Positions 19,533 through 48,912 of a stretch of DNA of 64,000 bases are shown in pieces. The notes beneath the pieces were generated by a model. The model was not told the origin of the DNA and ran no database searches. It worked only from the letters and a program-made list of their open reading frames with translations. The stretch's first letter is position 1; every line of letters begins with the position of its first letter. The DNA comes from Candidatus Magasanikiibacteriota bacterium (GTDB lineage: Bacteria > Patescibacteriota > Patescibacteriia > Magasanikbacterales > 2-02-FULL-50-9b). The position numbers were made by a program, and so were the translations under genes. The DNA lies in NCBI GenBank assembly GCA_023246755.1, contig JAHFHU010000003.1, forward strand, positions 3,854-67,853. The letters run 5' to 3'.

Positions 19533-19551
19533 AAAGCAGTTTGATAATTAT

Positions 19552-21138: not shown

Positions 21139-21143
21139 AATTT

Positions 21144-23348: not shown

Positions 23349-23349
23349 C

Positions 23350-24534
23350 ATGACAAACAATCAATCAAAAATTGAAAAATTGATCAGCAAACTCTGCCCG
23401 AATGGAGTGGAGTTTAAGGAGTTAGGTGAACTTTTGGATTACGAACAGCCGGGCAATTTCATCGTTAGATCAACTGAATATAATGATAATCTAGCAACGC
23501 CAGTATTGACGGCTGGGAAAAGTTTTATTCTTGGTTATACAGATGAAGTAGACGGTATATATAAAGCGAGCCAAGAATATCCGGTAATTATTTTTGACGA
23601 TTTTACGACTTCGTTCCACTGGGTAGATTTTCAATTTAAAGTTAAATCTTCCGCGATGAAAATGTTACGGAATAAAAAGGATGTTGATGTAAGCTTTAAA
23701 TTTATCTATTTTGCGATGAGATGTATACATTATGTTCCTTCAGATCATGCACGTCATTGGATTTCTCAATATTCAAAATTTAAAATCCCTCTTCCACCCC
23801 TTGAAATCCAAGAAGAGATTGTCAAAATTCTTAATAGTTTTACAGAGCTGGAGGCAGAGCTGGAGGCAGAGCTGGAGGCAAGAGAATCGCAATATAAGCA
23901 TTATCGAAAAAAGCTTTTAAGTATTAATGGTGATAGCGTGCAGTGGAAAACATTGGGAGAAGTTGCGGAGTACCGTCGAGGTTCTTTCCCGCAACCCTAT
24001 GGTGAAACTAAATGGTATGGAGGTGAAGGCGCTATGCCATTTGTTCAAGTGGCTGACGTTGGAGAAAATATGCGACTTGTTGAAAATACTAAACAGAAAC
24101 TTTCTAAGTTAGCCCAGTCTAAGAGTGTATTTGTACCTTCCGGAACAGTTATTGTAACCTTACAAGGCAGTATTGGACGAGTTGCCGTTACTCAATATGA
24201 TAGTTATGTTGATCGTACACTTGCAATTTTTGAAAGTTTTAAAAACAAAATTAATAAAAAATATTTTGCATATCAATTAGAAAGTAAATTTAGTGTCGAA
24301 AAAGAAAATGCGCGTGGAAGTACGATAAAAACAATTACAAAAGAAGAATTCACAAAATTTAAAATTCCAGTTCCATCACTTGAAATGCAGGATTATATAG
24401 TTACCAAACTAGATGCATTTAATTTACTTTTGAATGACATTTCAATTGGTTTGCCGGCAGAACTCTCGGCTCGCAGGCAACAATACGAATATTACCAAGG
24501 GAAGCTTTTAACTTTCAAAGAATATGCCAAATAA
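23350..24534 (+). CDS. hsdS: Type I restriction-modification system specificity subunit
   Basis: Two target-recognition domains separated by a conserved central helix containing (ELEA)x3. C-terminal conserved region (QQYEYYQGKLL). Overlaps hsdR start. Confidence 0.85.
   Translation: MTNNQSKIEKLISKLCPNGVEFKELGELLDYEQPGNFIVRSTEYNDNLATPVLTAGKSFILGYTDEVDGIYKASQEYPVIIFDDFTTSFHWVDFQFKVKSSAMKMLRNKKDVDVSFKFIYFAMRCIHYVPSDHARHWISQYSKFKIPLPPLEIQEEIVKILNSFTELEAELEAELEARESQYKHYRKKLLSINGDSVQWKTLGEVAEYRRGSFPQPYGETKWYGGEGAMPFVQVADVGENMRLVENTKQKLSKLAQSKSVFVPSGTVIVTLQGSIGRVAVTQYDSYVDRTLAIFESFKNKINKKYFAYQLESKFSVEKENARGSTIKTITKEEFTKFKIPVPSLEMQDYIVTKLDAFNLLLNDISIGLPAELSARRQQYEYYQGKLLTFKEYAK
23845..23880 (+). repeat. 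3 x 12-bp perfect tandem repeat (GAGCTGGAGGCA) encoding (ELEA)3 in the HsdS central conserved region
   Basis: Read directly from sequence. Confidence 0.8.
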
Positions 24535-27500: not shown

Positions 27501-27580
27501 AGCGTGAAAGTGTAATTAGTAAGCTCACAAGTTTCTTTGAAAGGTTCTTCGATATTTCTGGTGGAAAGTTTTCAGATTAA
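24524..27580 (+). CDS. hsdR: Type I restriction enzyme R subunit (SF2 helicase + nuclease)
   Basis: Walker A HTTGSGKTLTSF, DEAH-box FDECHRSQ, 1018 aa, directly follows hsdS. Confidence 0.9.
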   Translation: MPNNKYNLVAENPQSTVVGEYVAEGVRVAHYQSEADLERAFIKQLETQAYEYLPITSEADLILNLRKQLGKLNDFTFTDSEWEHFFVSELANPNQSIAEKTSTIQEDHIKNLTREDGTTKNVYLIKKDNIHDNSLQVINQYATEDGQRANRYDVTVLVNGLPLVHIELKRRGVAIAEAFNQINRYSRESFWAASGLFEYVQLFIISNGTHTKYYSNTVRSEHIKEAGEGAVKKGKRSSNSFEFTSWWADATNRPITDLMDFGKTFFAKHALLNILTKYCVFTTDRQLLVMRPYQIVATERILSRIEVSTNYKKLGTVEAGGYIWHTTGSGKTLTSFKTAQLVSKLSYVDKVIFVVDRKDLDYQTMREYDKFEKGAANSNTSTAVLTRQLGDSNSHIIITTIQKLDRFIGRNAGHAIFDGHVVLIFDECHRSQFGDMHAAITKTFKNYNLFGFTGTPIFAKNASAGGRPELKTTEQAFGEKLHTYTIVNAIADKNVLPFKVDYVSTVREAENIEDAQVRDIDREAVLASPERLANIVGYIREHFDQKTKRNSFYKLNDRRLAGFNSIFAVSSIDVAKKYYAEFKKQLDGVPSDKQLKVATIYSFGVNDEDADGMIDENSEDTNGLDVSSRDFLDSAITDYNAMFGTSYDTSSEKFQNYYKDVSLKMKNREIDVLIVVNMFLTGFDATTLNTLWVDKNLRLHGLLQAFSRTNRILNSVKAFGNIVCFRNLEKATNESIALFGNKEAGGVVLLKSYDEYYNGFKDGDKEVRGYASLVAELTEKFPIGEQILGEQNQKDFIKLYGGILRVRNILTTFDEFIGNEILSERDVQDYHSMYIDLYNEFRKGAEIEQENINDDLVFEMELIKQVEINIDFVLALIKRYHEDHNQDREILADINKAIDSSVELRNKKDLINQFITSLDIHSVVEEDWQKFVDKKKIEELEKIIDNEGLDHDATFAFVRNSFRDGSVATTGTAITKVLPPVTRFSPTGERTQKRESVISKLTSFFERFFDISGGKFSD

Positions 27581-30797: not shown

Positions 30798-30881
30798 CAA
30801 AAATAACAACACGTTATATATTTTATTCACGCATCGCCGCTAGGCGTCCTCTCCTCCTCACAAGGGAGGAGAGTTTATTTT
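30793..30881 (+). promoter_or_regulatory. promoter (TTGACA-n17-TATATT) plus structured leader (HP1 CGCC-gcta-GGCG; HP2 CTCTCCTCC-n6-GGAGGAGAG followed by a U-tract) preceding the PemK-like gene
   Basis: Read from sequence. Architecture and hairpins are conserved with compensatory changes at 31583..31680. Confidence 0.4.
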
Positions 30882-30891
30882 TAAGGGGGGT

Positions 30892-31290
30892 ATGTATCAA
30901 AAAGATTTTGACCAATGGAGTAAAGTCAAAAAACAAATAAACGTTAAAAAAGTTCGAATCACTATTCGGTCAGGCGATGTTCGGTGGATTATTTTTGGCG
31001 TAAATGTTGCAAGTGAAATCGACGGTAAGGGGGATTTATTTTTACGACCGGCTTTGATACTTCATGTGATTGGTGCGGATCTCGCGCTTGTCGTTCCTCT
31101 AACTTCGAAGCAAAAAAATATTCCCGGATATATACCATTTGCATTGAAGAAAAAATTTTGTTCACTATGTCTCCACCAAATAAAAGTAGTTTCACAAAAT
31201 CGCATGTTGTATCGACTTGAGCATGTTGCAGATAGCAGAGTGTATGAAGTGCAAAGACACGTCATGGATTTTTACGGGTTTCATAGATAA
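30892..31290 (+). CDS. PemK/MazF-fold endoribonuclease toxin-like protein (orphan, copy 1)
   Basis: SGDVRWIIFGVNVASEIDGKGDLFLRPALIL...LVVPLTSKQK...HQIKVVSQNRMLYRLEHV matches Kid/PemK/MazF motifs (GD[IV]W, RPxLIL, PLTS). Confidence 0.65.
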   Translation: MYQKDFDQWSKVKKQINVKKVRITIRSGDVRWIIFGVNVASEIDGKGDLFLRPALILHVIGADLALVVPLTSKQKNIPGYIPFALKKKFCSLCLHQIKVVSQNRMLYRLEHVADSRVYEVQRHVMDFYGFHR

Positions 31291-31574: not shown

Positions 31575-31582
31575 CCACGGCT

Positions 31583-31680
31583 TGACAAAATTTTTGTTCC
31601 GTGGAATAGTGTAAATACATTTCGCCGTTAGGCGCCCGAGCCTCCTCCATCACGGGGGAGGTGCATACTTTTAAGGAGGG
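31583..31680 (+). promoter_or_regulatory. promoter (TTGACA-n17-AATAGT) plus structured leader (HP1 CGCC-gtta-GGCG; HP2 CCTCCTCC-n5-GGGGGAGG followed by a U-tract) preceding PemK-like copy 2
   Basis: Paralogous to 30793..30881. Stems are conserved by covariation rather than by sequence identity. Confidence 0.4.
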
Positions 31681-31682
31681 GT

Positions 31683-32558
31683 ATGTATCAAAAAAATTTT
31701 GAGCAGTGGAATTTAATTAAGCAGCAGATAAATTATGAAAACCGTTCAGTACGAATTCGTGCGGGCGATGTTTGTTGGATTTTTGTTGGTGTAAATGTTG
31801 GGAGTGAAATTGATGGTAAGGGCGAATCTTTTCTTCGCCCAGCTTTGATTTTGAATGTTATGGGTGATGATTTGGTTCTAATCATTCCTCTCACGTCAAA
31901 ACAAAAACAATTACCGCGCTACATTCCACTCGAAATTCAAGATCGTACGAGCTTTTTATGTCTTCATCAATTAAAGGTAGTTTCTCAAAATCGTATTTTA
32001 CGTCGTATCGAGCATATTTCTGACTCGCGTCTCGCCTCCGTTCGTCATAACGTGCTATTATTCCACAACTTCACACCGACGCCTAAACCAAAACCTATGG
32101 CTCACATTCACGAACTCATCGATTTCACCGTGTCTTGCATGATTCTTCATCCAACCGAACCAAAAATTTTGTTAATTAATCACAAAATACTCAACACATG
32201 GCTGCCAATTGGTGGGCACATCGAACTCAATGAAGATCCGGACGAAGCGATCGCACGCGAAGTCGCTGAAGAGTGTGGTCTTCCGATCGAAATGATTTCG
32301 CGACGTCACTCCGGCGAATATCCGGAAACTAAAATGTTGCTCATCCCTGAAACTGTTGACATCCACACGATCAACACCGCGCACCGCCACATCAATTTCG
32401 GCTACCACGCACGTGCGCTCAGCGCAAACCCAAAACTTGCGCCCGAGGAGCATCACGATATTCAATGGTTCGGTGCAGACGAACTTGCCGACCCGAATTT
32501 TAACATCAAGCCCGCGGTCCGCGTCTACGCACTTGAATTTTTGCAAAAAAATGCGTAA
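31683..32558 (+). CDS. PemK/MazF-fold toxin-like domain fused to a C-terminal NUDIX hydrolase domain
   Basis: Residues 1-125 are paralogous to 30892..31290 (about 60 % identity). After a PTPKPKP linker comes the Nudix box GGHIELNEDPDEAIAREVAEECGL (GX5EX7REUXEEXGU). Confidence 0.6.
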   Translation: MYQKNFEQWNLIKQQINYENRSVRIRAGDVCWIFVGVNVGSEIDGKGESFLRPALILNVMGDDLVLIIPLTSKQKQLPRYIPLEIQDRTSFLCLHQLKVVSQNRILRRIEHISDSRLASVRHNVLLFHNFTPTPKPKPMAHIHELIDFTVSCMILHPTEPKILLINHKILNTWLPIGGHIELNEDPDEAIAREVAEECGLPIEMISRRHSGEYPETKMLLIPETVDIHTINTAHRHINFGYHARALSANPKLAPEEHHDIQWFGADELADPNFNIKPAVRVYALEFLQKNA

Positions 32559-35527: not shown

Positions 35528-35661
35528 CGAATGGATGGGGAGGCGTGGCTCCCATATCGTTGAGGATTTTTATGCACCGGTTTTCCACCATTGACAAAAT
35601 TTTTGATTCGTGGAACCCAGTAGTTTGTACGTCGCGCTGCGGCGGATAAATTTTAAGATCT

Positions 35662-36087
35662 ATGATGACGCATAGGAGGGTGCGATTGTTTGGGTATGTG
35701 GTTATTGAACGTGGAGTTGGAGAATTTGGGCCGATATATTCTGGCATTCGCGGGCAGGACGCAGTGAATTTTTTGTTGCAGGCAAAATCAGGTGAGGTAT
35801 TGGCTGCTTTTATGCATTCGGTTCTTGGGCCGATTGATTTGGTTTGGGGAGTAGAAACGGTTGGTGAGCGAAAGGGTTTTGGTCTTGCAAAAATTATCCA
35901 AAAACATCCCGAAGCGATTCATAGTCTGACAGAAGCGATAAAAAATAGCGAAATTGTTGAGGAACTTCCGGATAGACGTGTTCTTTTGTCACGTGATCAT
36001 GATCAGCAGTCCGTTATTGATTTGCAGTTTAACAATAAAAGTAAAAAGTGGTTGCTTACGTCGTATTTCCTTATAAAAATAACTTGA
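35662..36087 (+). CDS. hypothetical protein
   Basis: ORF only. Confidence 0.35.
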   Translation: MMTHRRVRLFGYVVIERGVGEFGPIYSGIRGQDAVNFLLQAKSGEVLAAFMHSVLGPIDLVWGVETVGERKGFGLAKIIQKHPEAIHSLTEAIKNSEIVEELPDRRVLLSRDHDQQSVIDLQFNNKSKKWLLTSYFLIKIT

Positions 36088-36260
36088 GCCCCCATTGCTG
36101 GGGGCTGACAACTTCTTTTCGAGCTTAAGCCAGATTACTCTCAAGTGAGCTTAAGTAAAAAATATCATACGCGATGCCGCACTGTCAAACCCTTGACACG
36201 CGCACAGGATTAGTGGTGTACTTTGTCATAACCCGAGTGGGTTATGAGGAGGTTGCATCC

Positions 36261-37364
36261 ATGATTGATACGTTTGTTGGCCGGACGGCTGACTCGCTCC
36301 CGCCTGAATTTGACATCATCAAAACTGGCCGCGGCTACACGATGGCTGGTTGGGATTTCAGCCGCGCCGAACTTGCGGCCGCGATCAATGCGCATCAGAT
36401 GCTCAATCCCGCGATGGAGCTTGGCACGAACGCGTGTCCGTGGAATTGCAGTTTTTGTTTCACGGAAAGTCCGGATAATCCGGATGGTGCAAAGCGGCGA
36501 CTCACGAATGAGATGTCGATCGCGCGGAGGCTCCAGCTTATCGATGAGGCCGCAGCGCTCGGTGCACGGTCAATCAATTTCGTCGGCGCGGGCGAGCCAA
36601 CGATCGATCCGAATTTTTGGCAGCTCATCGAGCGCATGCACCTGCGACACATCACGCCGATCGTGTACACCGAGGGTGCGTTACGTTTGACGGATCGCGC
36701 ATTTGTGCAGCGGCTGTATGATCTGGGCGCGACAGTCGTGTTCAAGGTGAACAGCTTGCATGACGAGGCGTACCAGAATGCGATTGTTGCGGGCGATGGT
36801 GTTCGCAAAAATCCGCGCAGCGAAAATTACACAGAGCGGCGCAACGCGGCGATCGATCTGTGCATGGACATCGGATTTCATCGGCATGACCCGACGCGTC
36901 TCGCGTTCGACACGATCGTGTGCGCGCAGAACGCGGGTGAGATTTTTGACCTGCATCGCTTCGCGCGGCGCAACAATATTTTCATCCTCATCGTGAATTA
37001 CTTGCCGAGTGGCCGCAGCACGGATCCGTTACATGGTGCGTTGTCGCGCGCTGAACAGTTTGATCTGTTTGCGCAACTTGCGCGGGTGGATCGCGAAGAG
37101 TTTGATCTTGAGCTCGCGAGCAGGTTTCCGTATGCGGGCGGCACACCGTGCACAATTCGTGGCATGGGTTTGTTCGTCAAAATTGGTGGGCGTGTGTTGG
37201 ATTGTCCGGGTGAATCAGAATCGCTCGGTGATCTACGCGAAAATTCGCTTGCCGAAATTTGGGGACGCGCGCGGCACATAACGCGTGCGCTCGACGGCGG
37301 GTGCGCCCCACGTGAAGTCGCGTGGGCAAAACAACGGAAGCAGTTATCGATCGAACGCACGTAA
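36261..37364 (+). CDS. radical SAM protein with C-terminal Cys-rich (SPASM/twitch-like) region
   Basis: CPWNCSFC (Cx3Cx2C), GAGEPT glycine-rich SAM motif, and C-terminal CTIRG...DCPGE..GGCAP cysteines. Start chosen at ATG with GAGGAGG 9 nt upstream. GC-rich. Confidence 0.7.
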   Translation: MIDTFVGRTADSLPPEFDIIKTGRGYTMAGWDFSRAELAAAINAHQMLNPAMELGTNACPWNCSFCFTESPDNPDGAKRRLTNEMSIARRLQLIDEAAALGARSINFVGAGEPTIDPNFWQLIERMHLRHITPIVYTEGALRLTDRAFVQRLYDLGATVVFKVNSLHDEAYQNAIVAGDGVRKNPRSENYTERRNAAIDLCMDIGFHRHDPTRLAFDTIVCAQNAGEIFDLHRFARRNNIFILIVNYLPSGRSTDPLHGALSRAEQFDLFAQLARVDREEFDLELASRFPYAGGTPCTIRGMGLFVKIGGRVLDCPGESESLGDLRENSLAEIWGRARHITRALDGGCAPREVAWAKQRKQLSIERT

Positions 37365-37655
37365 TTAAAAGCCCTCTGCAGTTTGGAAGTCGTGTAATTT
37401 CACGACTCATTGTAGGGGTTATTTTATATGGCCAATTTCATGTATTTGACACAAAATTTTAGATGCGTTATAACCGTAATTAAGTATGTACAATAAAATG
37501 GTTAACATCGAAGTGCATCTGATGAAAATGGCGGGCTATCCACCGCAAGTTTTGTATACCGACAAGCGAGGGCGTGTTGTTGATATCGTTGATAAAAAAT
37601 ATATTCCACGGTCAGTTAAGGAATTTTTTAGAAAATGTAAAGCCGTATAAAAACT

Positions 37656-38117
37656 ATGAGCAAGGAGGGGGTTGTTTTTGATTTTTCGTATAGAAAAAGC
37701 GGAGAAGTTACACCCGCAAAAGCGTTGGCATATCGAATCGATCCGGTTACGCGTCGGATTATTGAAGTGATCAAGCCTCGAACACATGAGTTTGAAAATA
37801 TTTTGCGTGCAACAGTCAAAGCGTTGCTCAAACAGAATAAAAAATTTCCAACAAATAAAGATGTCTTTGTTTTAATTGAGCATGGTTTGCACGCCACACA
37901 CGATTTTGAAGAGTGTGATGTGGACAATCGAGCAAAAACAATTTTGGACGCGCTTAAAAATGCTGTGTACCAAGATGACAAGCAAGTTTCAGTTTTGTGG
38001 ACGTGTAAAAAATTTTTGCGTTCCCAGCAAGAAAGTTATTTTACTATTTCAATCTGCATTTTGAATGTTGTAAAACGTCAGCAGATTATGCGAATGATGA
38101 AGTGTGTCGATGTTTAA
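37656..38117 (+). CDS. RusA-like Holliday junction resolvase (phage-type endodeoxyribonuclease)
   Basis: ECDVDNRAKTILDALKNAVYQDDKQV matches the RusA D-x-DN...K..DAL...DD-x-V catalytic motif. Confidence 0.5.
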   Translation: MSKEGVVFDFSYRKSGEVTPAKALAYRIDPVTRRIIEVIKPRTHEFENILRATVKALLKQNKKFPTNKDVFVLIEHGLHATHDFEECDVDNRAKTILDALKNAVYQDDKQVSVLWTCKKFLRSQQESYFTISICILNVVKRQQIMRMMKCVDV

Positions 38118-38323
38118 CATTTTTTTGTTTTTGTGTTCTGTGAGCGAGACTGCGCAGGCGTTGCGGACCGCCTTTTGATAATTTTGTTTTTTCTTTTGTG
38201 AAAGAGACTGCGCACAAGCATCATCGCGCAAATTTATTTTGCGCTTGGATGATGCGCGGAGGAACAAACGAAGATTTGCATGTGGCAATTCAAGAGGTCT
38301 CTTGAACAAAAGAAAAAACCAAA

Positions 38324-38727
38324 TGGTGGAGATGCCGGGAATTGAACCCGGGTCGAAGAAAAAGGTCGCCCTCGGCCTACGTGTGTAGTCCGGTTAATTT
38401 TTACCTATGCGCGTCCATCAATCGGACGAAAAATACGCACACAGGAACTGTGTTGGTTTCGGTAACGTGCGCGACAGATAGCGCGCGACGAGACCTACAT
38501 TACTGTTTTATAACACCGCGCATCGGACCGTAATCGTCCGACGTCGATGGCATTACGTTCTTAGGCGAATGCTGGAACAAAAGTTGGTGCGAATGCGTTA
38601 GCAACCGCGGCTTTTGCACGTGCAAAAATATTTGCATCTGGGTTTTGCCCCGCGTTTTAACGAGAAACGAGACATTCCCGACACGCCCGTTCGAGTCTTC
38701 TTTCTCTCCTCGAAGCCTGTCATCCCC
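38324..38727 (-). ncRNA. ssrA: tmRNA (transfer-messenger RNA)
   Basis: Minus-strand 5' GGGGAUGACAGGCUUCGAGGAG... pairs with 3' ...GGGUUCAAUUCCCGGCAUCUCCACCA (tRNA-like domain, encoded CCA). Internal tag reading frame ...GCU AAC GCA UUC GCA CCA ACU UUU GUU CCA GCA UUC GCC UAA. smpB lies adjacent. Ends approximate. Confidence 0.8.
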
Positions 38728-38789: not shown

Positions 38790-39317
38790 TCAATCCTTTG
38801 AATCCGGCGGATTTTCAAACGGTAAATCAAGTGGATTATCGTAGGGGCGTGTTTCGTTGAAGTCAGGATTTTTATTTCTAACTATAGGCAAAGATGGTAA
38901 AGGAGTGTTTGCGCGCGCAAGCTGAACAGCAATTTCGCGTTCCAAGTTCGTCGGTCCCGCAGAATCTTCACGAAGTGTGTCTCGTTGATTTGCGTCATCG
39001 ATAATATTTTTTGCTGCTGTACGCAATCCAAGCACATCGGGAACGAGGTCGTGATTTTTTTGTGAAACCGCTGCACGAAACATCGTCTTGAGTGTTTCCG
39101 TATCAACATGAACAACGCCGTTGACAAGTTTCGTCGGGGCGCCTTGCATTGTTGGGTCACCTTCTTTGAATGGAACAATGACGTTAAGCAGCGACATGAC
39201 CTCGTGCATTGTAGTTTTATGGCTCATGTCTCTACGAAAAGTGTCCGCTAAAATACGCGTTTGATTAAACTCATCTTTTTTCGCCATATTTTTATTGCTT
39301 AAGCTCGCGTCGTGCAT
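38790..39317 (-). CDS. hypothetical protein
   Basis: ORF between ssrA and smpB on the same strand. Confidence 0.35.
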   Translation of the reverse strand: MHDASLSNKNMAKKDEFNQTRILADTFRRDMSHKTTMHEVMSLLNVIVPFKEGDPTMQGAPTKLVNGVVHVDTETLKTMFRAAVSQKNHDLVPDVLGLRTAAKNIIDDANQRDTLREDSAGPTNLEREIAVQLARANTPLPSLPIVRNKNPDFNETRPYDNPLDLPFENPPDSKD

Positions 39318-39741
39318 CGCGCGCGATGTCGCGTTGTTTTAAAATTTCTTTTTTCTCGTGCGTTTTGCGGCCGCGCGCGATTGCAACTTTCAATTTAATC
39401 AATCGGCCGCGCGTGTAAATTTGAAGTGGCACCAGCGTGAAGCCACGCGTTTCGAACGCATCAAACATTTTCATCAACTCCTTTTTGTTGACGAGCAATC
39501 GGCGTGTGCGATAGGGGTCGTACACGGCGAGTGCGCCGCCCGCCGCTTTTTCATATTTTGGAATAAACGCGTTGATCAAAACGAGTTCACCGCCGACGAT
39601 TTTCACAAACGCACCGCGTAATTTCATCTGCCCCGCGCGTATTGGTTTGACTTCCACGCCGAGCAATTCCAAACCGGCCTCAAATTCATTGAGGACATCA
39701 AAATCACGTCGCGCGGTTTTGTTTTCGGCTAAGGCTGGCAT
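39292..39741 (-). CDS. smpB: SsrA-binding protein
   Basis: GVEVKPIRAGQMKLRGAFVKI..AGGALAVYDPYRTRRLLVNKKEL..GFTLVPLQIY..LKVAIARGRKTHEKKE matches SmpB. Confidence 0.85.
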   Translation of the reverse strand: MPALAENKTARRDFDVLNEFEAGLELLGVEVKPIRAGQMKLRGAFVKIVGGELVLINAFIPKYEKAAGGALAVYDPYRTRRLLVNKKELMKMFDAFETRGFTLVPLQIYTRGRLIKLKVAIARGRKTHEKKEILKQRDIARDARRELKQ

Positions 39742-39788
39742 AGATAAATCAAAAAGAGTATACTGTATTTACCGCATTTCTCACAACT

Positions 39789-40808
39789 ATGGTCAACCAA
39801 CGCATCACCATCTCAACCGATTCAATCGTGCGTGTTTTTTTAATCGCGCTTGCGCTGTGGCTTGCCTATGCGGTGCGCGGAACACTTTTGCTCGTGCTGA
39901 TTTCCTTTATATTGGCGACCATAATGCAACCGCTCGTTTTGCGCGCGGAACAATATCGCATCCCGCGTTCGGTCAGTGTTTTGACGGTTTACGCTCTCGG
40001 ATTTTTGGTTTTTGCCGCGGTCGGTTGGGCGCTGATGCCGATTTTGTCGCAAGAGGTCACCCAAATCTCTCAAAATTTTGGTGATTATTGGAATAAAGTC
40101 GTCGCAATTTTGCCGCAAGCGCTCGGAAACAACATCAAACAAACGATGCAAACGAATATCACCTCGATTGCCGACGCAGCGCGGAGCGGTCTCGCGTTAA
40201 CCGTCACCGGCCTCGCCTCGACGCTCCACGGATTGATCAGTGTCATCGGTTCGGTGGTGATTATTTTAGTTCTTGCGTTTTACTTTGTTGTTGAAGAGCG
40301 CGCCATTAAAAAGGCGCTTGTTCGAATTTTACCGATCACACACGTGCCGTTTGCTGAACGCATGATCGTCAATTCACAATTTTGGCTCGGCGGTTGGGCG
40401 CGCGGACAAATCATCCTGTCGTTTCTTGTTGGCACGCTCGTGTTCATTTCGCTCACGGTTATCGGCGTTCCTTACGCGTTTGCGCTCGCCGCACTTGCCG
40501 GGCTCGTTGAATTTATTCCGTATGTCGGTCCGATCAGCTCTGCAGTTTTTGGAATTTTTTTTGCGCTCACCATCTCGCCAACAGTCGGGTTGATAACCGC
40601 AATCGCATACTACGTCATTCAGATTCTCGAAAATAATATTTTTATTCCGAAAGTCATGCAAAAAACTGCGGGTGTCAATCCCGTGCTTTCGTTCACCATG
40701 ATTTTGCTCGCATACGAAGCGCTTGGTGTCGTCGGCGTTTTTCTCGGCGTTCCAATCGCGTCGCTCATCATGGCGATCATGGATTCCCTCGAACCGCGCG
40801 CGCATTAA
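39789..40808 (+). CDS. AI-2E family transporter (PerM/UPF0118)
   Basis: Eight TM helices and the characteristic C-terminal region; 339 aa. Confidence 0.55.
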   Translation: MVNQRITISTDSIVRVFLIALALWLAYAVRGTLLLVLISFILATIMQPLVLRAEQYRIPRSVSVLTVYALGFLVFAAVGWALMPILSQEVTQISQNFGDYWNKVVAILPQALGNNIKQTMQTNITSIADAARSGLALTVTGLASTLHGLISVIGSVVIILVLAFYFVVEERAIKKALVRILPITHVPFAERMIVNSQFWLGGWARGQIILSFLVGTLVFISLTVIGVPYAFALAALAGLVEFIPYVGPISSAVFGIFFALTISPTVGLITAIAYYVIQILENNIFIPKVMQKTAGVNPVLSFTMILLAYEALGVVGVFLGVPIASLIMAIMDSLEPRAH

Positions 40809-40809
40809 T

Positions 40810-41349
40810 ATGAATCTCGAAAAAGCCAGAAAACCATTAACAGTGCTCGCGGTGCTCGTCAGCGCAACCGGTCTCGCACTTCTGGTCGATGGCCGAAAAG
40901 TTTTAATCGAAATTTGCGTTGTCGCGCTGGCGCTCACCGTTTTTTTTGTGTGGGCATGGATCCGCGCGTATCAAAATTTTTGGAAAATTCAGCGCGTGAT
41001 GGCCGCATTTTTTTTGTGGAGCGCAACATCTGCCGTGTTTGCGTTCCGCATGCTACATCTTGAATCCTTATATCTCATCATTTTTCTCGGCGCACTCGTC
41101 GCAATTTTTGTGGGATTGCTGTGGAGCCCGGTTCGCTTTCTCGGCGCACTCATCACATTCGAATGGTTTGTAATTTTTTTATTCGCGCCGGCAAGTTACG
41201 CGGTGCTCGGCGCGCTCACGACGACCTTTTCGATCGCAACGATGTGTATGTTTGATGCGACGAATACGCGTCGTGATATCATCAAACAACTGATCGGCGC
41301 CGCGCTCGTCGGCGCGATTTTCATTCTTGCTTTTAAATGGATGCTTTGA
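40810..41349 (+). CDS. hypothetical membrane protein
   Basis: Start at MNLEKARKP (ATG 40810) just after the upstream stop; 4-5 TM helices. Confidence 0.4.
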   Translation: MNLEKARKPLTVLAVLVSATGLALLVDGRKVLIEICVVALALTVFFVWAWIRAYQNFWKIQRVMAAFFLWSATSAVFAFRMLHLESLYLIIFLGALVAIFVGLLWSPVRFLGALITFEWFVIFLFAPASYAVLGALTTTFSIATMCMFDATNTRRDIIKQLIGAALVGAIFILAFKWML

Positions 41350-41355
41350 TTTTTT

Positions 41356-42408
41356 ATGACCATCCCTCCACACATTCCTCTCGAAAATGATGCGGCGCGT
41401 GAAATGTTGCGCACGGATCGTTCGCGTTTGATTTTCACCACGATTACGATTGTCGTTGCGGCGCTCAGCGGTTTTATCGCGAGTCTCGTCTACACCGCGT
41501 ATGGCCCGTCAACAGCGCCGATCACCTCAATCCAAACGCGTGTTGAAAAAACAGCGGTCGAAGCAATTGACGAGTCGCGAATAAAAAATACGCAAGAGGC
41601 GATCGCGACGTTCACGGGTGAGAAAACGGATCAGACACTTGCGTATGGTGTTGCGTTGACGGGGGATGGATGGTTTTTGGCGTCTGCCGCCGCGACAAAA
41701 ACGAAACATGCGCTGCTGCATCCACAAACGACGGGCGCGATTGAAAACGTCGTCAATGATCCCGCGTCCGGACTCGTATTCGTCAAAACAAATATTCAGA
41801 ACGCGCGACTCCTCGCGAGCGGCACGCTTGAAAATACGCCGCGCGGCTCGACGTTGTTTATCATTTTGCCGCACACCGCAATTCCCGTTACGTTGCAAGA
41901 CACGCACGTGTGCATAACCGATCGATGCCCAGCTGAGTATGGCGACAAAATTTCGTATGCAGCCGGCATCGTCGAATCGTTGCCACAATTTATGATCGAC
42001 GGCGCGCCGGTTATTTCCGGACAAGGGGATTTAGTTGGGATCGCGACACGCGCGGCGAACAACAGTGCGATCATCATGCCGCTCACGGAAGTGCGTTCGG
42101 TTTTTGCGTCCGTTTTTTCAAAAGGTGTCGCGACGCGCGTCGTGGCTCCGCTTCGCGTGGTTAATTTGACGCGGTGGTCGGTGTTTGACGCGGACAACCA
42201 TTTGCCTGAGCAGGGGATGCTTGTTGAAAGTGCGCCGGCCGCGACGCTGCTCAAAGAGGGCGATGTGATTACCGCGATTGAACATCAGCGCATCGAAGCC
42301 GACACCATGTTGTTTGACCTCGTCAACCAGTTACAATCGCGCGGCGCGGTGTCGATGACTGTTTTGCGCACGGGCGTTTCGATGGACATCGCGGTTCCGT
42401 TAAGGTAA
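41356..42408 (+). CDS. membrane-anchored protein with trypsin-like/PDZ-like features
   Basis: N-terminal TM; C-terminal GDVITAIEHQRI PDZ-like segment. Catalytic triad not confidently identified. Confidence 0.35.
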   Translation: MTIPPHIPLENDAAREMLRTDRSRLIFTTITIVVAALSGFIASLVYTAYGPSTAPITSIQTRVEKTAVEAIDESRIKNTQEAIATFTGEKTDQTLAYGVALTGDGWFLASAAATKTKHALLHPQTTGAIENVVNDPASGLVFVKTNIQNARLLASGTLENTPRGSTLFIILPHTAIPVTLQDTHVCITDRCPAEYGDKISYAAGIVESLPQFMIDGAPVISGQGDLVGIATRAANNSAIIMPLTEVRSVFASVFSKGVATRVVAPLRVVNLTRWSVFDADNHLPEQGMLVESAPAATLLKEGDVITAIEHQRIEADTMLFDLVNQLQSRGAVSMTVLRTGVSMDIAVPLR

Positions 42409-42417
42409 AATATTTTT

Positions 42418-42999
42418 ATGGCACATCGTTCGTTCGGCACCTCAATTTTTTTTGGCATCGTCGTCGGTTTGCTCGCGATGATTCTTGCGCCAATTGTTTC
42501 GCCGCTCAAGTACGGTGCGCAGGCGCGTGTGCTCGTGACCCCACACGCGATCCCCGGCGTTGACCCGTACACGAGCAGCAAGGCCGCGGAACGCATCGCG
42601 CAAAATGTTGCGCAGATTGTTGGGACGAGCGAATTTTTTAATCGGGTGATTTCGGTTTCGGTTGGTGTTGATGGGAATTATTTTCCAAAAGATGAGCTCA
42701 CGCGTCGCAAACTCTGGAATCAGACAATCGAGGCGAGTGTGGTGTACAACACCGGCATCTTGCAAATCACGGCGTATCATCCGGACAAGCAGCAGGCCGA
42801 GGCGATCGCGACCGCGGTCAGCTATGTTTTGACGCAGGCCGGCAACGATTTTGCGGTCAACGCAGCGGATTTTCGGTTGATCGACCGTGCGATTGGGTCA
42901 AAATATCCGAGCAAACCAAATTTCCCTGCGCTCGGCGTCGGCGGCTTTTTGGCAGGCACCGCGCTTTCCTTGCTCTATTTACGACCAAAAAAGCGTTAA
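42418..42999 (+). CDS. small bitopic membrane protein (Wzz/chain-length-determinant-like topology)
   Basis: TM helices at both ends flanking a ~140 aa soluble domain. Confidence 0.3.
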   Translation: MAHRSFGTSIFFGIVVGLLAMILAPIVSPLKYGAQARVLVTPHAIPGVDPYTSSKAAERIAQNVAQIVGTSEFFNRVISVSVGVDGNYFPKDELTRRKLWNQTIEASVVYNTGILQITAYHPDKQQAEAIATAVSYVLTQAGNDFAVNAADFRLIDRAIGSKYPSKPNFPALGVGGFLAGTALSLLYLRPKKR

Positions 43000-43262
43000 T
43001 TTGGATATAAAACAGTGTTTTTGAGCGGTTTCCTCTGTTGAGTTCTCGTGTCTGATGGGGACTTGACATTTTTTTCGTTATCTGATATGGTGGAGAGTCT
43101 TGAAGTGGCAATTGCAACGCCTGCGCCACCCAAGAGTTCGCGAACCTTCTGGTTTTCGAGCGTTTCAGCAGGCGGTTTACAAACTAGGTAGTTAAAATTG
43201 CATCGACGCGGCCCATGGTGGGTTGTTGCGATGTATCACGCCGAAAGGCAAAGGAAAAGGTC

Positions 43263-44048
43263 ATGAAGAAGGCAAGTGTCAAAAAAACTGCGCAGGTCGC
43301 TATTGAGGGAAAGTGCGATGGCGACGGCAACGGCGCGCCGATTTCGAAGGCAGGGTCGGATGAGGTTGCGGCTCCGGCTGTGGAATGGGTTATGCCGGTC
43401 AAGGTGGCCGACGTTGCTCCAGTCGCGGTCAATCCGGATGCGCAGCCAGCGGTCTTCAACTTCGACGATGGCTTCGCCGATGGCCCCGAGGCAAGGGGAG
43501 CCGCCCAAGAAGCGGAAGTTGCTCGGCGGATCGACGCGGCGCTCAATGATGGTCGCGCGGCTGGTTTGGCCGAAGGTCGGCGTTTGGCGGCTGCCAGCGT
43601 GGAATCGCCGACACCACCCAAGAAAAAGGATGGCGGTGACGATTCTCTTCCTGCTCCGGTGGCGGCGGCTCGTGCCCCAGCGGCTTCGACGCCGAGCGAC
43701 GATGATGGTGGTATGTGGCGCGTTATTGGCGCACTTGCGCTCATTGTGGCGCTGGTGGGTTTGATCTACTACAATTGGCCGAAAGACGGCCATGTGGTTG
43801 GCGGACCGCCACCGGCGCCGACGGCAGTTGCAAAGCCAGCACCGGCAACGGTGCCTGCGACTCCGGCTCCTGTGCCGGCATCCGCACCCGCTCCTTCGCC
43901 GGCGAGCGTTGAGGAAGAATTGGTTCTCGAGCACCTTGAGGTCGACCCGGACACGGGTTCCATCAAGAAGGTCTTGGAGACCAAACGTGGCAGCACTATC
44001 GTGAGCACCGCGGAAACCATCGTCTTCGCACCGAGCTACGCGCCCTAG
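43263..44048 (+). CDS. Ala/Pro-rich membrane protein
   Basis: Start ATG with AAGGAAAAGG RBS, central TM helix, PAPAT low-complexity tail. GC-rich block. Confidence 0.4.
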   Translation: MKKASVKKTAQVAIEGKCDGDGNGAPISKAGSDEVAAPAVEWVMPVKVADVAPVAVNPDAQPAVFNFDDGFADGPEARGAAQEAEVARRIDAALNDGRAAGLAEGRRLAAASVESPTPPKKKDGGDDSLPAPVAAARAPAASTPSDDDGGMWRVIGALALIVALVGLIYYNWPKDGHVVGGPPPAPTAVAKPAPATVPATPAPVPASAPAPSPASVEEELVLEHLEVDPDTGSIKKVLETKRGSTIVSTAETIVFAPSYAP

Positions 44049-44308
44049 TGAAGGTTGGGCGAATCAGGAAGTAGTGGACGGCGGCTGTTGCAACACAGCA
44101 TGCCGCCGTCCACGAAGTTTTTCTAGAACAGTCTTGTGCGCGTTAGGCAACGCTTAATCCGCAAAAGACTGTTCTGGACTGTGTGCCATGTTGGCGCGCG
44201 TTTCAGACAGTGTCCTTTCAAATTAGTTTTCCGGTTCGCGAGGCAAGGCTGCCAAGCAACCATCACCGTCCGCATTCTCGCGGACAAGCTAGGCCCAAGG
44301 AGGGCATC

Positions 44309-45307
44309 ATGAAGAGTTTCTTTTTGGCGGCCATTGCCGCGTTGTTTCTGGTTTCGTTCTCGTTCTCGGCGTTCGCGCAAACGGCTTCGCTGCCAAGTTC
44401 TGCAACGGCTACCATCGGCACTGTCGAACGCATCGTCAACGCCCGCGTGGCGCAGACCGATGCGGCCCTCATTGCCGCCCGCGCCGATGTCGACCGCAAG
44501 GCGGCGGCCGGTCAGCTCCTCATCGTTGCCGATTTCGCTCGCGTTCGCGCGGCGGCGGCGGCGGAGGCAAATGCTCGAGCTGATCGTGATCGAGTGCTGG
44601 GTAGCGACATCGCCAAACTGGCTCGCACTGGCAAGGCGACGCGCGCGCAGCTGACCGCTCTCATCGCAGACGTTAAAAAGATTGACGGTCTCGCGAAGGG
44701 CGACCACGAGCAACTTGGCGTTCTCGCTGGTCAGCTGACCGCTGTGGTTGTGGAGCAGACACGCCACGTCGAGCGAATGAATGGTATCGAAGTGCGGCAG
44801 GGCGTGACGGACCGCAACGTCACGATCGTGAACAGCAAAGTCGACGCGCTCGCTGCCAGTCTGTGGCAGAGCTCGTTCGACATCGGTATCTACTCAGGCC
44901 GCGGCATCGGCACATCGGAGACCGGTTTCAGTCTCGACTACGGCTCGTTGAGCCCGTCGGGAAATGGTTGGATCGCAGGCCTCTCGGTCGGCGCCGGTGA
45001 TCTGTTCAGCAGCCCGCATCCGACTTCGTTCCTCGCGCACGCGGGCGCGCAAGTGACCATGGGCAGCGTGCGCTCGCCGATTTTGTTCAACGCCGGCCTC
45101 TTTGGCGGCGCAGCGAGCAAGTCGTCCTTGTCACGTATGGCTGACACTGGCTTCGCAGTCGGTGGCGAGATCGCGTTGGTTGTGAAGCCGGCGGCGCTCT
45201 CGGGTCTCGGTTTCAAGCTGATGACCCAGCAAGTGTTCGGTCGGTACGAAGGTTTTGGGTTCTACGGAGCCCTGACGTTCGATCCGTCGAAGCTACCCGC
45301 GTTCTAG
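44309..45307 (+). CDS. secreted hypothetical protein
   Basis: Signal peptide MKSFFLAAIAALFLVSFSFSAFA; GC-rich block. Confidence 0.45.
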   Translation: MKSFFLAAIAALFLVSFSFSAFAQTASLPSSATATIGTVERIVNARVAQTDAALIAARADVDRKAAAGQLLIVADFARVRAAAAAEANARADRDRVLGSDIAKLARTGKATRAQLTALIADVKKIDGLAKGDHEQLGVLAGQLTAVVVEQTRHVERMNGIEVRQGVTDRNVTIVNSKVDALAASLWQSSFDIGIYSGRGIGTSETGFSLDYGSLSPSGNGWIAGLSVGAGDLFSSPHPTSFLAHAGAQVTMGSVRSPILFNAGLFGGAASKSSLSRMADTGFAVGGEIALVVKPAALSGLGFKLMTQQVFGRYEGFGFYGALTFDPSKLPAF

Positions 45308-45676
45308 TAGGTCGCACGCAACTGGTGCGGCCGTCCCTTGGGGCAAGAGTTGAGGAAGTGTGCACGACGTGCATGCGACCAAAAATTCTTGCCCCGAGGT
45401 GAGATTTTTTCCACAGGCACGTTACTTGACAACTGATTCAAGAAGAATGATAATGAACATCCAATTAAGTTCACCTTCTTGAGGACTGAAGTCGTCCGGC
45501 GAAGATCTGTTATGCTCCCTCCTTCATAACAGGTTTCTTGCCGGACGGCTCCAGTCCTTTGGTTATTCCGGACATACCGGAAGAATCAAAGCGGCTGCGG
45601 TTCACACACGCGCGGGGTGGCTGCCTCGTTGCGTTTTCGCCCACAGGGCATACCCCTGCGGGGGAAGGAGACAGCC

Positions 45677-46810
45677 ATGCGTAAGTTCCTTTCAATCATT
45701 TCAGGTTTCTTTTTCACGGCGGCGTGTCAAGGTGGCGCGTTGACTCATGACAATGGCGGTGAGCAGCAAGCGGCTCCGGCGGCGCAAGCCAACCCGACGA
45801 CCACCGGCCAGCAAGCGGCTCCGACATGCAGCTGTGCCATCAAGAGTCCTGGCGTCTACTGCCAAGTGGAGGGTGGCGGTGCGAATTTGCACTGTGAAGC
45901 CTTCACCGGCGGATGCGATAGCGCCGGTGCCTGCAAGAGCGACCCGGGCGCGAGCAAGTCGAGCGTTTGCCCGACGGGCCAAGTCTGGCAAGGTGCAACG
46001 AGCTGGGCCCCTGCGGCCAACGTGTTTGCATGCGCGGAATCAAAAACCGCTGCAGCGTCGCCAACGACAACGGTCGAGACTGCGTGCAAAGCAACGAGTC
46101 AGTGCCAGAAGGGCCTGAAGTTTTGCAGGTGCGCAGGCGAGATCGGCGGTCAATCGCTGAGCTGCATTACGCAGACCGGCGAGTGCGCCAAAGATGTGAT
46201 CGGCGAGTTCTGTGTCGCAAGTGCGGAAAGCGCAGAGTCGTGCGGTTCCAACATGGCGTGCAAAACGCAAGGCTGGTTACCCCTCGATGAGGCGTGTGTT
46301 CCACAGTGGAAGCCCGCGGTAACAACTGGCTGCAAAGCCAATGGTTGCCCCGCGGGTCAGACCTGCGGCAGCGACGACAAATGTTTCGCGCTGGCGCCGC
46401 CTACCGTGGGCACCGGCATCTGCGAAATCAAGACGCTGAGCGGCCTAGGCTTCACGGCCTATGGCAGCGGTGTTTCGTCCGTCGATGGCGCCGAAGCAGG
46501 TTGGTCTGCAGGCGTTGTCGCTCCGGCAAACGGCAGCGCCAAGTTGAGCGTGGGCAGCGCAAGCTACCTCGCGTTCAACGCCCAACTCAGCACCGGCCTT
46601 TGGGCCTACGGCTGGGACGGCGTATCGGCCAGCAACGCCACGAAGGTCGTAGACAACTGGCAGGTGAGCTGTGGCGGCATCAGTTATGTAAAGTTATTCG
46701 AGGGTCCGCAGCAGCCAAACTGCGCGGCGAACCTTGCTATCGGCAACGCCTGTTACTGGGCTAAGCCAAACACGACCGGCACATATCGTGTCGTCGTGCG
46801 CGTGAAGTAG
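45677..46810 (+). CDS. Cys-rich secreted lipoprotein
   Basis: Lipobox-like FFTAAC followed by many paired cysteines. Confidence 0.5.
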   Translation: MRKFLSIISGFFFTAACQGGALTHDNGGEQQAAPAAQANPTTTGQQAAPTCSCAIKSPGVYCQVEGGGANLHCEAFTGGCDSAGACKSDPGASKSSVCPTGQVWQGATSWAPAANVFACAESKTAAASPTTTVETACKATSQCQKGLKFCRCAGEIGGQSLSCITQTGECAKDVIGEFCVASAESAESCGSNMACKTQGWLPLDEACVPQWKPAVTTGCKANGCPAGQTCGSDDKCFALAPPTVGTGICEIKTLSGLGFTAYGSGVSSVDGAEAGWSAGVVAPANGSAKLSVGSASYLAFNAQLSTGLWAYGWDGVSASNATKVVDNWQVSCGGISYVKLFEGPQQPNCAANLAIGNACYWAKPNTTGTYRVVVRVK

Positions 46811-47069
46811 CGAATCGGCGTCCAACCGGATGCCAAGCGGTCATTATCCGTCGGCTGTGACTTTCTCTTCGAGAAGGTTGCAGTCGGCGGTGTTTTATTT
46901 TTATCCACAATTTAGCCAAAAAATGTGTCATTTTGCCTCTTGACAAAATTAGGACTTTCGTGATATTGTGCGCAGTCCGCTCTGTGTTCCCAAGAGTGTG
47001 ACGTCAACGTTGGGGAAACTAAACAGGTTTTTAATGGGCCATTTCGGCCCGCAAAAAAGGAGACCTGCC

Positions 47070-48695
47070 ATGGACAAGATCTTTACGGCGGCCATGGCGG
47101 CCGTCCTCGTTTCTTTCTTCGGTTGTTCGAGCGACATGATCGCACCGGCGAGTAGCGATGCCACGACGGGCGCAGCAGACGCAAAGGCCACTGCGGCAAT
47201 TGAGCAGCCTCCGGGTTGTGATATTGTCAAAAATGGTAGCGACTGCGTGGATTGGATTATTTCCGTCGACGGCCAATGTCACCGGTCCGTTAAATGTCAG
47301 CGCAAGGCTGATGTCGACGGCTCTCCGATTGACAAATGTGTCGTTACCGATAACGGTCAGGTTGGCACGGCGTGCGACGACAGCAATAAATGCACAACGG
47401 GCGACCAATGTGCAAATGTCGGCGCGTGCGTCGGCAAGTCGGTGGACTGCGACGACAAGAACGCGTGCACGACGGACAGTTGCGACAAGGCCAAAGGCTG
47501 CCTGCACGGGACGGTTGACACCGCCTGCAGCGACGGCGATGCGTGCACGTCGGGCGATAAATGCTTGGGCGGCGCGTGCGCCGGTGCCAAGATCGATTGC
47601 GACGACAAGAACGCCTGCACCAGCGACTCATGCGACCCGGCCAAGGGCTGCGTCAACGCTCACAACGCCAACGCGTGCACCGACGACAACGTCTGCACCG
47701 AGGGTGATGTCTGCAAAGATGGCGCCTGTGCGGCCGGCGCGGCGAAAAACTGCGACGACGGCAAGCAATGCGTCGACGATGCGTGCGACCCGATCAAGGG
47801 CTGCGCACACGTCAACGCCAAAGTCGGCGCGGCGTGCGACGACGGGATCGTAAAAACCGTCGGCGACATCTGCGACGGCGGCGGCAAGTGCATCGGCAAA
47901 ACTGCAACGGCCTGTGCGGCCAACGCAGATTGCGCCGGGCTCGAGGTCAACAAGTGTGCCAGCTACGTGTGCGATATCGGTTTGGGGCTGTGCAAGCCGC
48001 AACCCGCCGCGCTGACGGACGACGGCAATCCATGCACTCTCGAGGTGTGCAACCCGGTGGACGGGAGCACATTGCACACGGCGCTCGATGTGTCGTGCGA
48101 CGACAAGAACGTCTGCACGGTGGGCGACCTTTGCAAGAAGGGCGTCTGCACGGCGGGCGGCGCTACGATGCCGTGCGACGACAACAACGCGTGCACCACG
48201 GACAGCTGCGACAACATTGTCGGCGGCTGCGTCCACGCGACCCTCGCGTGCGACGACAAAAATCCGTACACCGACGACAGCTGCGAGCCCAAGTGGGGTT
48301 GTCAGTTTGTCGCGAAGCAAGCGACGGTCGCTTGTGAAGTCCCCAAAGACTTCATGGTCGGATTTGTTTTCACGGATTGTTCCGTTGAGACAAAATTCGG
48401 CAAGGCGGACGCCGCAACCGGAGCAAAGACTTTCGCTAACCCGATGGTTGGCAAGGTTGTGAAGCTCAGCCTCGAGCAGCTCTGCGCTGCGCTCGCGGGC
48501 GGTGCGGTGCTGGTCGTGAAGGCCACGGCGTACATGTCCGACGGCACGCCGATTTCCGGCGGCGGCGAGTTGTCGAGCGTGAGCATGCCCGACGGTAGCA
48601 AGGTTGAGGGTTCGTTCCAAGCGTGGAGCGGTACCGAAGCCGAGCGGATCGTTGGAAAGGCCGACATCGGCACGTTCTGTCCGCCGCTCAAGTAG
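47070..48695 (+). CDS. lipoprotein with Myxococcus-type cysteine-rich repeats
   Basis: Lipobox SFFGCSS. At least nine repeats of C-x-D-x-N-x-C-T-x-D-x-C-D-x-x-x-G-C (e.g. CDDKNACTTDSCDKAKGC). Confidence 0.55.
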   Translation: MDKIFTAAMAAVLVSFFGCSSDMIAPASSDATTGAADAKATAAIEQPPGCDIVKNGSDCVDWIISVDGQCHRSVKCQRKADVDGSPIDKCVVTDNGQVGTACDDSNKCTTGDQCANVGACVGKSVDCDDKNACTTDSCDKAKGCLHGTVDTACSDGDACTSGDKCLGGACAGAKIDCDDKNACTSDSCDPAKGCVNAHNANACTDDNVCTEGDVCKDGACAAGAAKNCDDGKQCVDDACDPIKGCAHVNAKVGAACDDGIVKTVGDICDGGGKCIGKTATACAANADCAGLEVNKCASYVCDIGLGLCKPQPAALTDDGNPCTLEVCNPVDGSTLHTALDVSCDDKNVCTVGDLCKKGVCTAGGATMPCDDNNACTTDSCDNIVGGCVHATLACDDKNPYTDDSCEPKWGCQFVAKQATVACEVPKDFMVGFVFTDCSVETKFGKADAATGAKTFANPMVGKVVKLSLEQLCAALAGGAVLVVKATAYMSDGTPISGGGELSSVSMPDGSKVEGSFQAWSGTEAERIVGKADIGTFCPPLK

Positions 48696-48912
48696 AGAGG
48701 GTGGGCGAGCAGGTTCAACAAAACCGGGGTGAGTATGAGAAAGTAGTGCGAACGCACGAAATCAAAATACTCACCTCGGGGATATTTTCTCCTGACAATT
48801 TTCCAAATGGGTTGGTCTGTGCGACATGCCGCTCCGTTTGGTGAATGGTCATATCGGCTGTTCACTCCGGTTTACGCCCCCGGTTTCTGGGCTAATTCGT
48901 AAGGAGGTCCTC

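Follow-up and report, generated by a model that had tools for sequence, protein, structure and literature searches.

Separately acquired genes probably adjoin the tmRNA gene of a Candidatus Magasanikbacteria genome

We analyzed a 64,000-nucleotide stretch of contig JAHFHU010000003.1, hereafter the window, from a genome of Candidatus Magasanikbacteria (candidate phyla radiation [CPR]), focusing on the segment at 36174 to 38727, where a radical SAM gene and a RusA-family resolvase-like gene lie beyond the 3′ end of ssrA, the gene for transfer-messenger RNA (tmRNA). The closest relatives of the SmpB protein encoded in the window are metagenome-assembled genomes (MAGs) of the same group, with 79% and 71% identity. 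A first-pass annotation had proposed that this segment is a degraded island integrated at ssrA. We postulate instead, at a probability of roughly 60%, that accessory genes acquired separately form a patchwork here, in a hotspot of gene turnover, and that the segment is the end of this patchwork nearest ssrA. Three independent units stand side by side: the radical SAM gene, a module formed by a 54-amino-acid (aa) open reading frame (ORF) and the RusA gene, and the tmRNA gene with a structured spacer that it has in common with the convergent RusA gene. Because the radical SAM and RusA genes deviate in opposite directions in the GC content of third codon positions (GC3; 0.64 versus 0.36) and their homologues lie apart in every other locus examined, they do not form one unit.

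The DNA beyond ssrA differs between relatives. Five related contigs have the smpB side of the locus (39.26 to 43.1 kb of the window), which is its conserved, syntenic part (positions 39259 to 43110 are collinear with contigs L001, L002, L039, and L040), and only L040 extends past ssrA. In L040, which encodes a SmpB that is 79% identical and a tmRNA that is 84% identical in nucleotides (Rfam, 133.6 bits), ssrA is followed by a spacer of ~350 nucleotides (nt) and then by a convergent gene of 137 aa that has no homologue in the window. Another contig, L056, is 91% identical to window positions 37438 to 38107 and carries the same 54-aa ORF and RusA gene, with an extra methyltransferase-like gene of 282 aa inserted between window positions 38107 and 38121. 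Given the different gene in L040 and the extra gene in L056, the ssrA flank changes even between close strains. Contigs L001, L002, L039, and L042 were left out of the flank comparison, as they either stop ahead of ssrA or within it or have none nearby. Comparing the locus among relatives, as the first-pass annotation had advised, thus revealed a differing flank in L040 and L056; the contigs are too short for an island boundary to be visible. We infer that the ssrA side may be a site of repeated gene gain and loss, brought about by recombination or by small serine recombinase elements resembling those of related genomes, which would since have gone.

The RusA-family Holliday junction resolvase-like gene (37656 to 38117, plus strand, convergent with ssrA; 153 aa) is AT rich (GC, 0.38) and matches Pfam RusA (PF05866, 37.3 bits against a threshold of 22.8) and phrog_140. 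Its acidic residues are conserved: the motif DxDNRxKTILDALK...Y.DD.QV is invariant in 13 RusA homologues (D88, D90, N91, K94, D98, D107, and D108), and we take the invariant Asp residues to be the counterparts of the catalytic Asp residues of Escherichia coli RusA. A profile search of solved structures with this protein returned no match. The 54-aa ORF (37486 to 37650, plus strand) makes an operon-like pair with the RusA gene and is preceded, at about 37446, by a promoter-like TTGACA-N17-TATAAC. A homologous ORF of 54 to 57 aa lies directly upstream of the RusA homologue in all three loci retrieved (L056, L057, and L058), and to judge from this gene order the pair is a conserved two-gene module. 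In L057 and L058 the radical SAM gene does not accompany the module. In L058 it lies among housekeeping genes yet is AT rich relative to them (GC3 of 0.31 to 0.34 versus ~0.5); in L057 it is the last in a series of genes, among them those for Dam and an HTH_17 protein, whose first member encodes a large serine recombinase and abuts a tRNA-Gln gene. The protein thus resembles RusA of lambdoid prophages (PF05866, PHROG 140) in its above-threshold Pfam match and invariant acidic DxDN...DD residues and differs from it in always accompanying the small upstream ORF and in having both housekeeping and mobile surroundings in CPR genomes.

The radical SAM gene (plus strand; Pfam Radical_SAM, E = 1.6e-13) was listed as an ORF from 36174, but translation most likely starts at the ATG at 36261, preceded by GAGGAGG, giving a gene at 36261 to 37364; this version is matched over 100% of its length by a 367-aa database protein that is 99% identical. 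The neighbors of the gene differ in all 10 loci in which we examined it and its homologues. They include a serine recombinase with RmuC, NYN, and PIN genes; Wzy with glycosyltransferases; secY; GT4; a VirD4-like protein; an SNF2 helicase; restriction-modification (R-M) genes with a reverse transcriptase; CHAP; ndk; and, in the window, PBECR1 and RusA. Across these 10 loci, no ORF within 2 kb of the gene is common between loci, and no direct or inverted repeats of at least 12 nt flank it. Homologues in L033, L053, and L054 adjoin recombinase, helicase, R-M, or reverse transcriptase genes, and others have housekeeping neighbors, in L036 (secY and the ribosomal operon), L059 (ndk and L32), and L035.

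The gene is also a recurring GC-rich patch, one gene long, in several AT-rich CPR genomes (GC3, 0.53 to 0.80). Its GC3 is 0.62 in L033, against 0.32 to 0.36 in the adjacent ATP synthase genes; 0.53 in L035 (neighbors, 0.31 to 0.42); 0.63 in L052 (0.42 to 0.53); 0.70 in L054 (0.28 to 0.34, omitting one small GC-rich ORF of 111 aa at 0.69); and 0.80 in L053 (0.41 to 0.61, omitting one of 135 aa at 0.83). Either frequent transfer from GC-richer donors or an unusual constraint on codon composition would account for this pattern. A further possibility, which we consider unlikely, is that the gene is a self-contained mobile single-gene function that circulates among CPR and a few other bacteria and lands in variable regions, such as those 3′ of tRNA or tmRNA genes. 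Such a function could be, for example, that of a viperin-like or MoaA-like nucleotide-altering enzyme serving antiviral defense or resistance.

In the window, the first-pass annotation had described the radical SAM gene as locally GC rich (~60%) within AT-rich DNA. The contrast with the flanks holds (300-nt windows of 0.56 to 0.58 in the gene and 0.36 to 0.44 on either side), and the GC content of the gene is 0.57. However, ORFs of the window span GC contents from 0.30 to 0.62, and GC3 is at least 0.63 in 14 of 70; with such a range, composition delimits no island. The AT-rich class includes, by GC3, RusA (0.36), PBECR1 (0.37), MazF (0.31), and the type I R-M genes, while the radical SAM gene (0.63 to 0.64) resembles pyrE (0.69), pyrF (0.62), and smpB (0.55). 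On the other side of ssrA, a run of GC-rich genes at 43215 to 51117 (GC, 0.59 to 0.62; GC3, 0.62 to 0.76) contrasts with the AT-rich accessory genes, and the three genes scanned in this run (277, 374, and 397 aa) have no Pfam match.

These compositional values bring up the view that nothing here is foreign, i.e., that radical SAM and RusA belong to the lineage's own housekeeping genes and adjoin ssrA by chance, poor synteny being normal for small genomes. The core-like GC3 of the radical SAM gene, the housekeeping surroundings of its homologues in L036, L059, and L035 and of the RusA module in L058, and the invariant catalytic motifs retained in both proteins all fit such a view. We nevertheless think it quite unlikely. 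Given the size of the radiation, the tight radical SAM family has few members (260 clusters at 90% identity and ~3 at 50%), the position of the gene differs at every locus, and in AT-rich hosts its GC3 lies 0.2 to 0.4 above that of neighboring core genes. The RusA module is likewise AT rich against its flanks in L058 and part of a recombinase element in L057.

Islander recognizes an island in a tRNA or tmRNA gene (tDNA) by two marks, an integrase and a displaced piece of the target gene that keeps its orientation, and integration into tmRNA genes is frequent (Hudson, Lau and Williams 2015; PMC4383910). In the window, the tmRNA gene (38324 to 38727, minus strand) is intact and provides the full-length tDNA at one end: ARAGORN and Rfam both detect it, RF00023 scores 117.5 bits against a gathering threshold of 47 over the full model (1 to 374), the CCA end is at 38324, and the tag reading frame encodes AVANAFAPTFVPAFA, ending in AFA. 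The homologous tmRNA in L040 (L040:5108 to 5508) was missed by ARAGORN, though Rfam detects it. Together with the Pfam matches, these results confirm that a RusA-like resolvase gene and a radical SAM gene adjoin the tmRNA 3′ end, as first described.

We found no displaced fragment of ssrA. The 28-nt 3′ end has no second copy in the 64-kb window at up to 3 mismatches, and among 12- to 20-mers of the last 45 nt of ssrA (0 to 3 mismatches) the only hit is a 13-nt match, inverted, inside hsdR at 26.2 kb. Within the 38 kb that the search covers on the island side of ssrA, the direct repeat that the first-pass annotation had suggested looking for has no usable counterpart. An integrase is also lacking, in agreement with that annotation: Pfam scans of selected ORFs between 8.5 and 46 kb detected no Phage_integrase, Resolvase, Recombinase, or transposase domain, and neither the serine recombinases nor the cargo proteins of L033 and L057 had a tblastn match anywhere in the window. 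Between 35.5 and 38.3 kb there is no unassigned noncoding gap larger than ~210 nt and hence no room there for a decayed integrase.

A single island or prophage may still have entered the 3′ end of ssrA and later lost its integrase and distal attachment (att) site, leaving PBECR1, the radical SAM gene, the 54-aa ORF, and RusA as surviving cargo. We regard this scenario as doubtful, with a minor but real chance of being correct. Part of the original proposal does stand, as the flank is accessory and variable and contains genes of phage-associated families (RusA and PBECR1). tmRNA genes being common targets, the indel directly after RusA in L056, which shows ongoing decay or turnover, and the homologues of both the radical SAM gene (L033) and the RusA module (L057) beside large serine recombinases abutting tRNA genes point the same way. 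The missing ssrA fragment, the missing integrase, pseudogene, or other element gene, and the missing space for one argue against it, as do the sharply different compositions of the radical SAM and RusA genes, which never occur together in the other loci examined. Moreover, neither protein has a relative in IMG/VR; deposited phages offer no match to RusA and, for the radical SAM protein, a single remote partial match at 25% identity. The locus is thus like Islander islands in its intact tmRNA, in the partly phage-related accessory genes directly beyond the 3′ end, and in content that varies between relatives. It is unlike them in having neither a displaced tDNA fragment nor a tyrosine integrase and in the mixed composition of its contents.

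The elements in the two related contigs have a common layout. In L033 (5678 to 7367), an ORF for a large serine recombinase on the opposite strand, with its stop at 5697, ends inside a tRNA-Asp gene (5678 to 5754), and the radical SAM gene is cargo. In L057 (1504 to 3110), the corresponding opposite-strand ORF has its stop at 1515 and ends inside the tRNA-Gln gene (1504 to 1577), with Dam, HTH_17, and the RusA module as the cargo that follows. No repeat of a tRNA fragment delimits either element. As of 2015, serine integrases were not known to target tRNA genes (PMC4383910).

We next consider what the radical SAM gene encodes. Membership in the superfamily is clear (PF04055, 51.6 bits against 29.5; a CX3CX2C motif). 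Invariant residues include C59, C63, and C66 (CPWNCSFC), the SAM-binding GAGEP, C297-X12-G-X4-C315, C348, and many Arg and Lys residues, and C221 is nearly invariant. N-terminal to the radical SAM core is a conserved region of ~55 residues that is particular to the family. No Pfam domain other than Radical_SAM and SPASM was found in the protein, and the N-terminal region has no separate match. The full SPASM signature comprises seven Cys residues (CX9-15GX4C ... CX2CX5CX3C ... C). Here, SPASM stays below its cutoff (PF13186, 17.7 bits against 21.5), and since the first half of the signature is present without CX2CX5CX3C, the motif is of the twitch type, with a single auxiliary cluster. The C-terminal Cys cluster typical of peptide-modifying maturases that the first-pass annotation had reported accordingly reduces to CX12GX4C plus C348.

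Homologues number 260 at 90% clustering; among the 120 matches listed, identities range from 57% to 99%, and most come from CPR MAGs. Clustering at 50% collapses this tight family to ~3 representatives, and a wider family at 30 to 40% identity comprises 43 proteins with E values of 1e-30 or better. Assignment to QueE, MoaA, or viperin was tried and rejected. The QueE model, a housekeeping identity that the first-pass annotation had raised as a possible refutation of foreign origin, gave no match, and no other NCBIfam model came near its cutoff (tungsten cofactor maturase, 38.8 against 380; viperin, 35.1 against 180; MoaA, 31.9 against 231). The more distant relatives also fit no named NCBIfam family, and their domain fusions, only to a second radical SAM, a B12-binding, or a receiver domain, are uninformative. 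PHROGs, PADLOC, and NCBIfam gave superfamily-level matches only, the PADLOC match to pVip being weak (36 bits). The AlphaFold2 (AF2) model is confident (pLDDT, 88; pTM, 0.90). A single-sequence search of the PDB found no match to the protein, and a profile search of solved structures recovered only MoaA and GDGT-MAS, at E values of ~1e-3. Identity to SkfB, SuiB, BlsE, MoaA, anSME, and viperin is only 13 to 18%. Compared with twitch and SPASM enzymes, this protein is distinguished by three invariant C-terminal Cys residues plus the nearly invariant C221, by its own 55-residue N-terminal segment, and by the lack of partner genes. Literature searches returned nothing specific on this radical SAM family, on RusA in Patescibacteria, or on tmRNA islands in Patescibacteria.

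As far as its residues tell, this is a stand-alone enzyme with one twitch-type auxiliary-cluster motif, from a family without a name. Because it is conserved this strongly and has no partner gene, the enzyme most likely acts not on a peptide encoded nearby but on a universal small molecule (a nucleotide or sugar nucleotide) or on a conserved macromolecule. The SAM cluster would abstract a hydrogen atom, and the second cluster would hold or oxidize the substrate. A maturase of ribosomally synthesized and posttranslationally modified peptides (RiPPs), with a nearby small ORF such as the 54-aa ORF as its precursor, appears highly improbable to us. The CX12GX4C motif is that of the SPASM/twitch class, and the 54-aa ORF begins 121 nt downstream of the radical SAM gene. 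This ORF, however, accompanies RusA even where the radical SAM gene is missing, and none of the other nine radical SAM genes has a homologue of it within 2 kb. More generally, the 10 loci have no conserved small ORF over that distance, which bears out the earlier remark that no obvious precursor gene is nearby. The ~55-residue N-terminal region has no match to a recognition domain, and 57 to 72% identity across distant hosts would be unusual for an enzyme coevolving with a private peptide.

The third unit includes the spacer between RusA and ssrA (38118 to 38323), whose structure emerges from repeats and folding. The first-pass annotation had noted two copies of GAGACTGCGCA, which are indeed present at 38146 and 38204 (expected copies, 0.05), both within a longer 33-nt direct repeat (38124 to 38156 and 38182 to 38214; 79% identical). 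Its 18-bp perfect palindrome, TTCAAGAGGTCTCTTGAA at 38289 to 38306, proved to consist of 8-bp arms around a nonpalindromic GT (8-2-8). A 28-nt inverted repeat (38181 to 38208 and 38297 to 38324) has its distal arm directly after the tmRNA CCA, such that in RNA of the tmRNA strand the 28 nt after CCA pair with 38181 to 38208 in a long hairpin (-63.4 kcal/mol; z = -5.5). A long hairpin also begins directly after CCA in L040, with another arm sequence (36-nt arms, 81% complementary; -85 kcal/mol; z = -7.7), and a 37-nt stretch of the L040 spacer is 92% identical to window positions 38183 to 38219. On the plus strand, RusA is followed by a short GC hairpin and then a run of T residues, a terminator-like sequence that looks like the RusA terminator. 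The spacer most likely represents paired convergent terminators, a 3′ trailer processed off the pre-tmRNA, or both.

The spacer has only short AT-rich words and one 15-mer in common with the rest of the window. In L056, copies of a T-rich ...AAGAGAC motif bracket the extra 282-aa gene. The 8-2-8 palindrome and the repeated GAGAC-containing motif after ssrA might, though we consider it unlikely, serve as sites of recombination for large serine recombinase elements like those adjoining tRNA genes in related genomes. We also observed an element of ~55 nt, consisting of two AAAATGTTTAACA boxes followed by TTTTTGTATCACACA, that occurs twice in the window, at 10185 to 10235 just 3′ of a tRNA-Asp gene and at 57229 to 57280 in an intergenic region. 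A single 15-nt AAAATGTTTAACA-type box at 38110 to 38124 falls precisely on the junction of the indel that distinguishes the window from L056, where it overlaps the stop codon of RusA.

Several points weigh against the interpretation of separately acquired genes or against parts of it. Elements mobilized by serine recombinases need no long att repeat, and the absence of a repeat therefore does not rule them out. Three of the 10 radical SAM loci (in the window, L033, and L059) lie no more than ~2.5 kb from the 3′ side of a tRNA or tmRNA gene, a proximity that is suggestive of tDNA-targeted mobility yet close to chance. The flank comparison draws on three relatives, each extending less than 1 kb past its anchor, with the L040 and L056 contigs ending within 0.6 to 1.8 kb, and the function proposed for the spacer draws on folding energy and a single comparison. 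With regard to the substrate class, the two best structural matches of the radical SAM enzyme are peptide maturases.

The segment terminates a larger accessory block of ~21 kb, from ~16.8 kb to the spacer at 38.3 kb, whose genes are mostly accessory and, with few exceptions, on the plus strand; infC, pyrE, and pyrF lie to its left. According to Pfam scans, the block encodes in order Fic, an HD protein, a DUF4357 protein, hsdM, a 734-aa protein, hsdS, hsdR, a Cas4/RNase H-like protein, an NYN protein, an HIT protein, MazF, and a MazF-NUDIX fusion, followed by an ABC transporter pair, a 369-aa membrane protein, PBECR1, and then the radical SAM gene, the 54-aa ORF, and RusA. The type I R-M cluster (hsdM, the 734-aa ORF without a Pfam match, hsdS, and hsdR; 18699 to 27580) is low in GC (0.30 to 0.43) and is preceded by the gene for the DUF4357/RAMA protein. 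Two tandem paralogous MazF/PemK-like toxin genes (30878 to 31137 and 31669 to 31928) are 72 to 74% identical in nucleotides and 791 nt apart, the second being fused to a NUDIX domain. The block resembles defense or accessory islands in its type I R-M system, Fic, two MazF-like toxins, NYN, Cas4-like nuclease, and PBECR1, and it is unlike defense islands in containing an ABC transporter and a membrane protein. No known defense system was detected among the six scanned ORFs nearest ssrA, where the weak pVip match was the only one.

The upstream neighbor of the radical SAM gene encodes a stand-alone PBECR1 domain (phage Barnase/EndoU/colicin/RelE-like nuclease; 35662 to 36087, plus strand; Pfam E = 2.1e-10, 41.5 bits against 27.6). 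It is AT rich (GC, 0.42) and has its own promoter-like motif (35591 to 35615) and a terminator-like hairpin (36087 to 36106). By tblastn it matches 107 phage records at 36 to 40% identity, inside large polyvalent or DarB-like proteins; the IMG/VR scan with this protein was negative. The promoter-like motif, TTGACAAAATTTTTG.T.CGTGGAA, is 25 nt long and occurs in two copies that are 92% identical, one before the MazF-NUDIX gene (31582 to 31606) and the other before the PBECR1 gene, with an inverted copy of the TTGACAAAATTTTTG motif inside the MazF-NUDIX gene (32156 to 32176). The pair may reflect shared regulation of two toxin-like genes. On the other side of the tmRNA gene, a lineage-specific 175-aa ORF (38790 to 39317, minus strand), with a homologue in L001, lies upstream of ssrA, and so does smpB at 39292 to 39741 (minus strand; Pfam SmpB, E = 4.9e-43).

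For the most part, our finding is an ordinary one, and its main value is corrective: proximity to ssrA and a phage-type gene do not make an island, and in a genome with genes at 30 to 62% GC, a GC-rich gene is no evidence of foreign origin. The parts worth a further look are the radical SAM family and the serine recombinase elements that abut tRNA genes. As the family is so strongly conserved and has no partner genes, a specialist might find it worthwhile to ask what its substrate is and what lies behind its mobility or codon bias. If confirmed, small CPR elements with large serine recombinases abutting tRNA genes would extend the known target range of this recombinase family.

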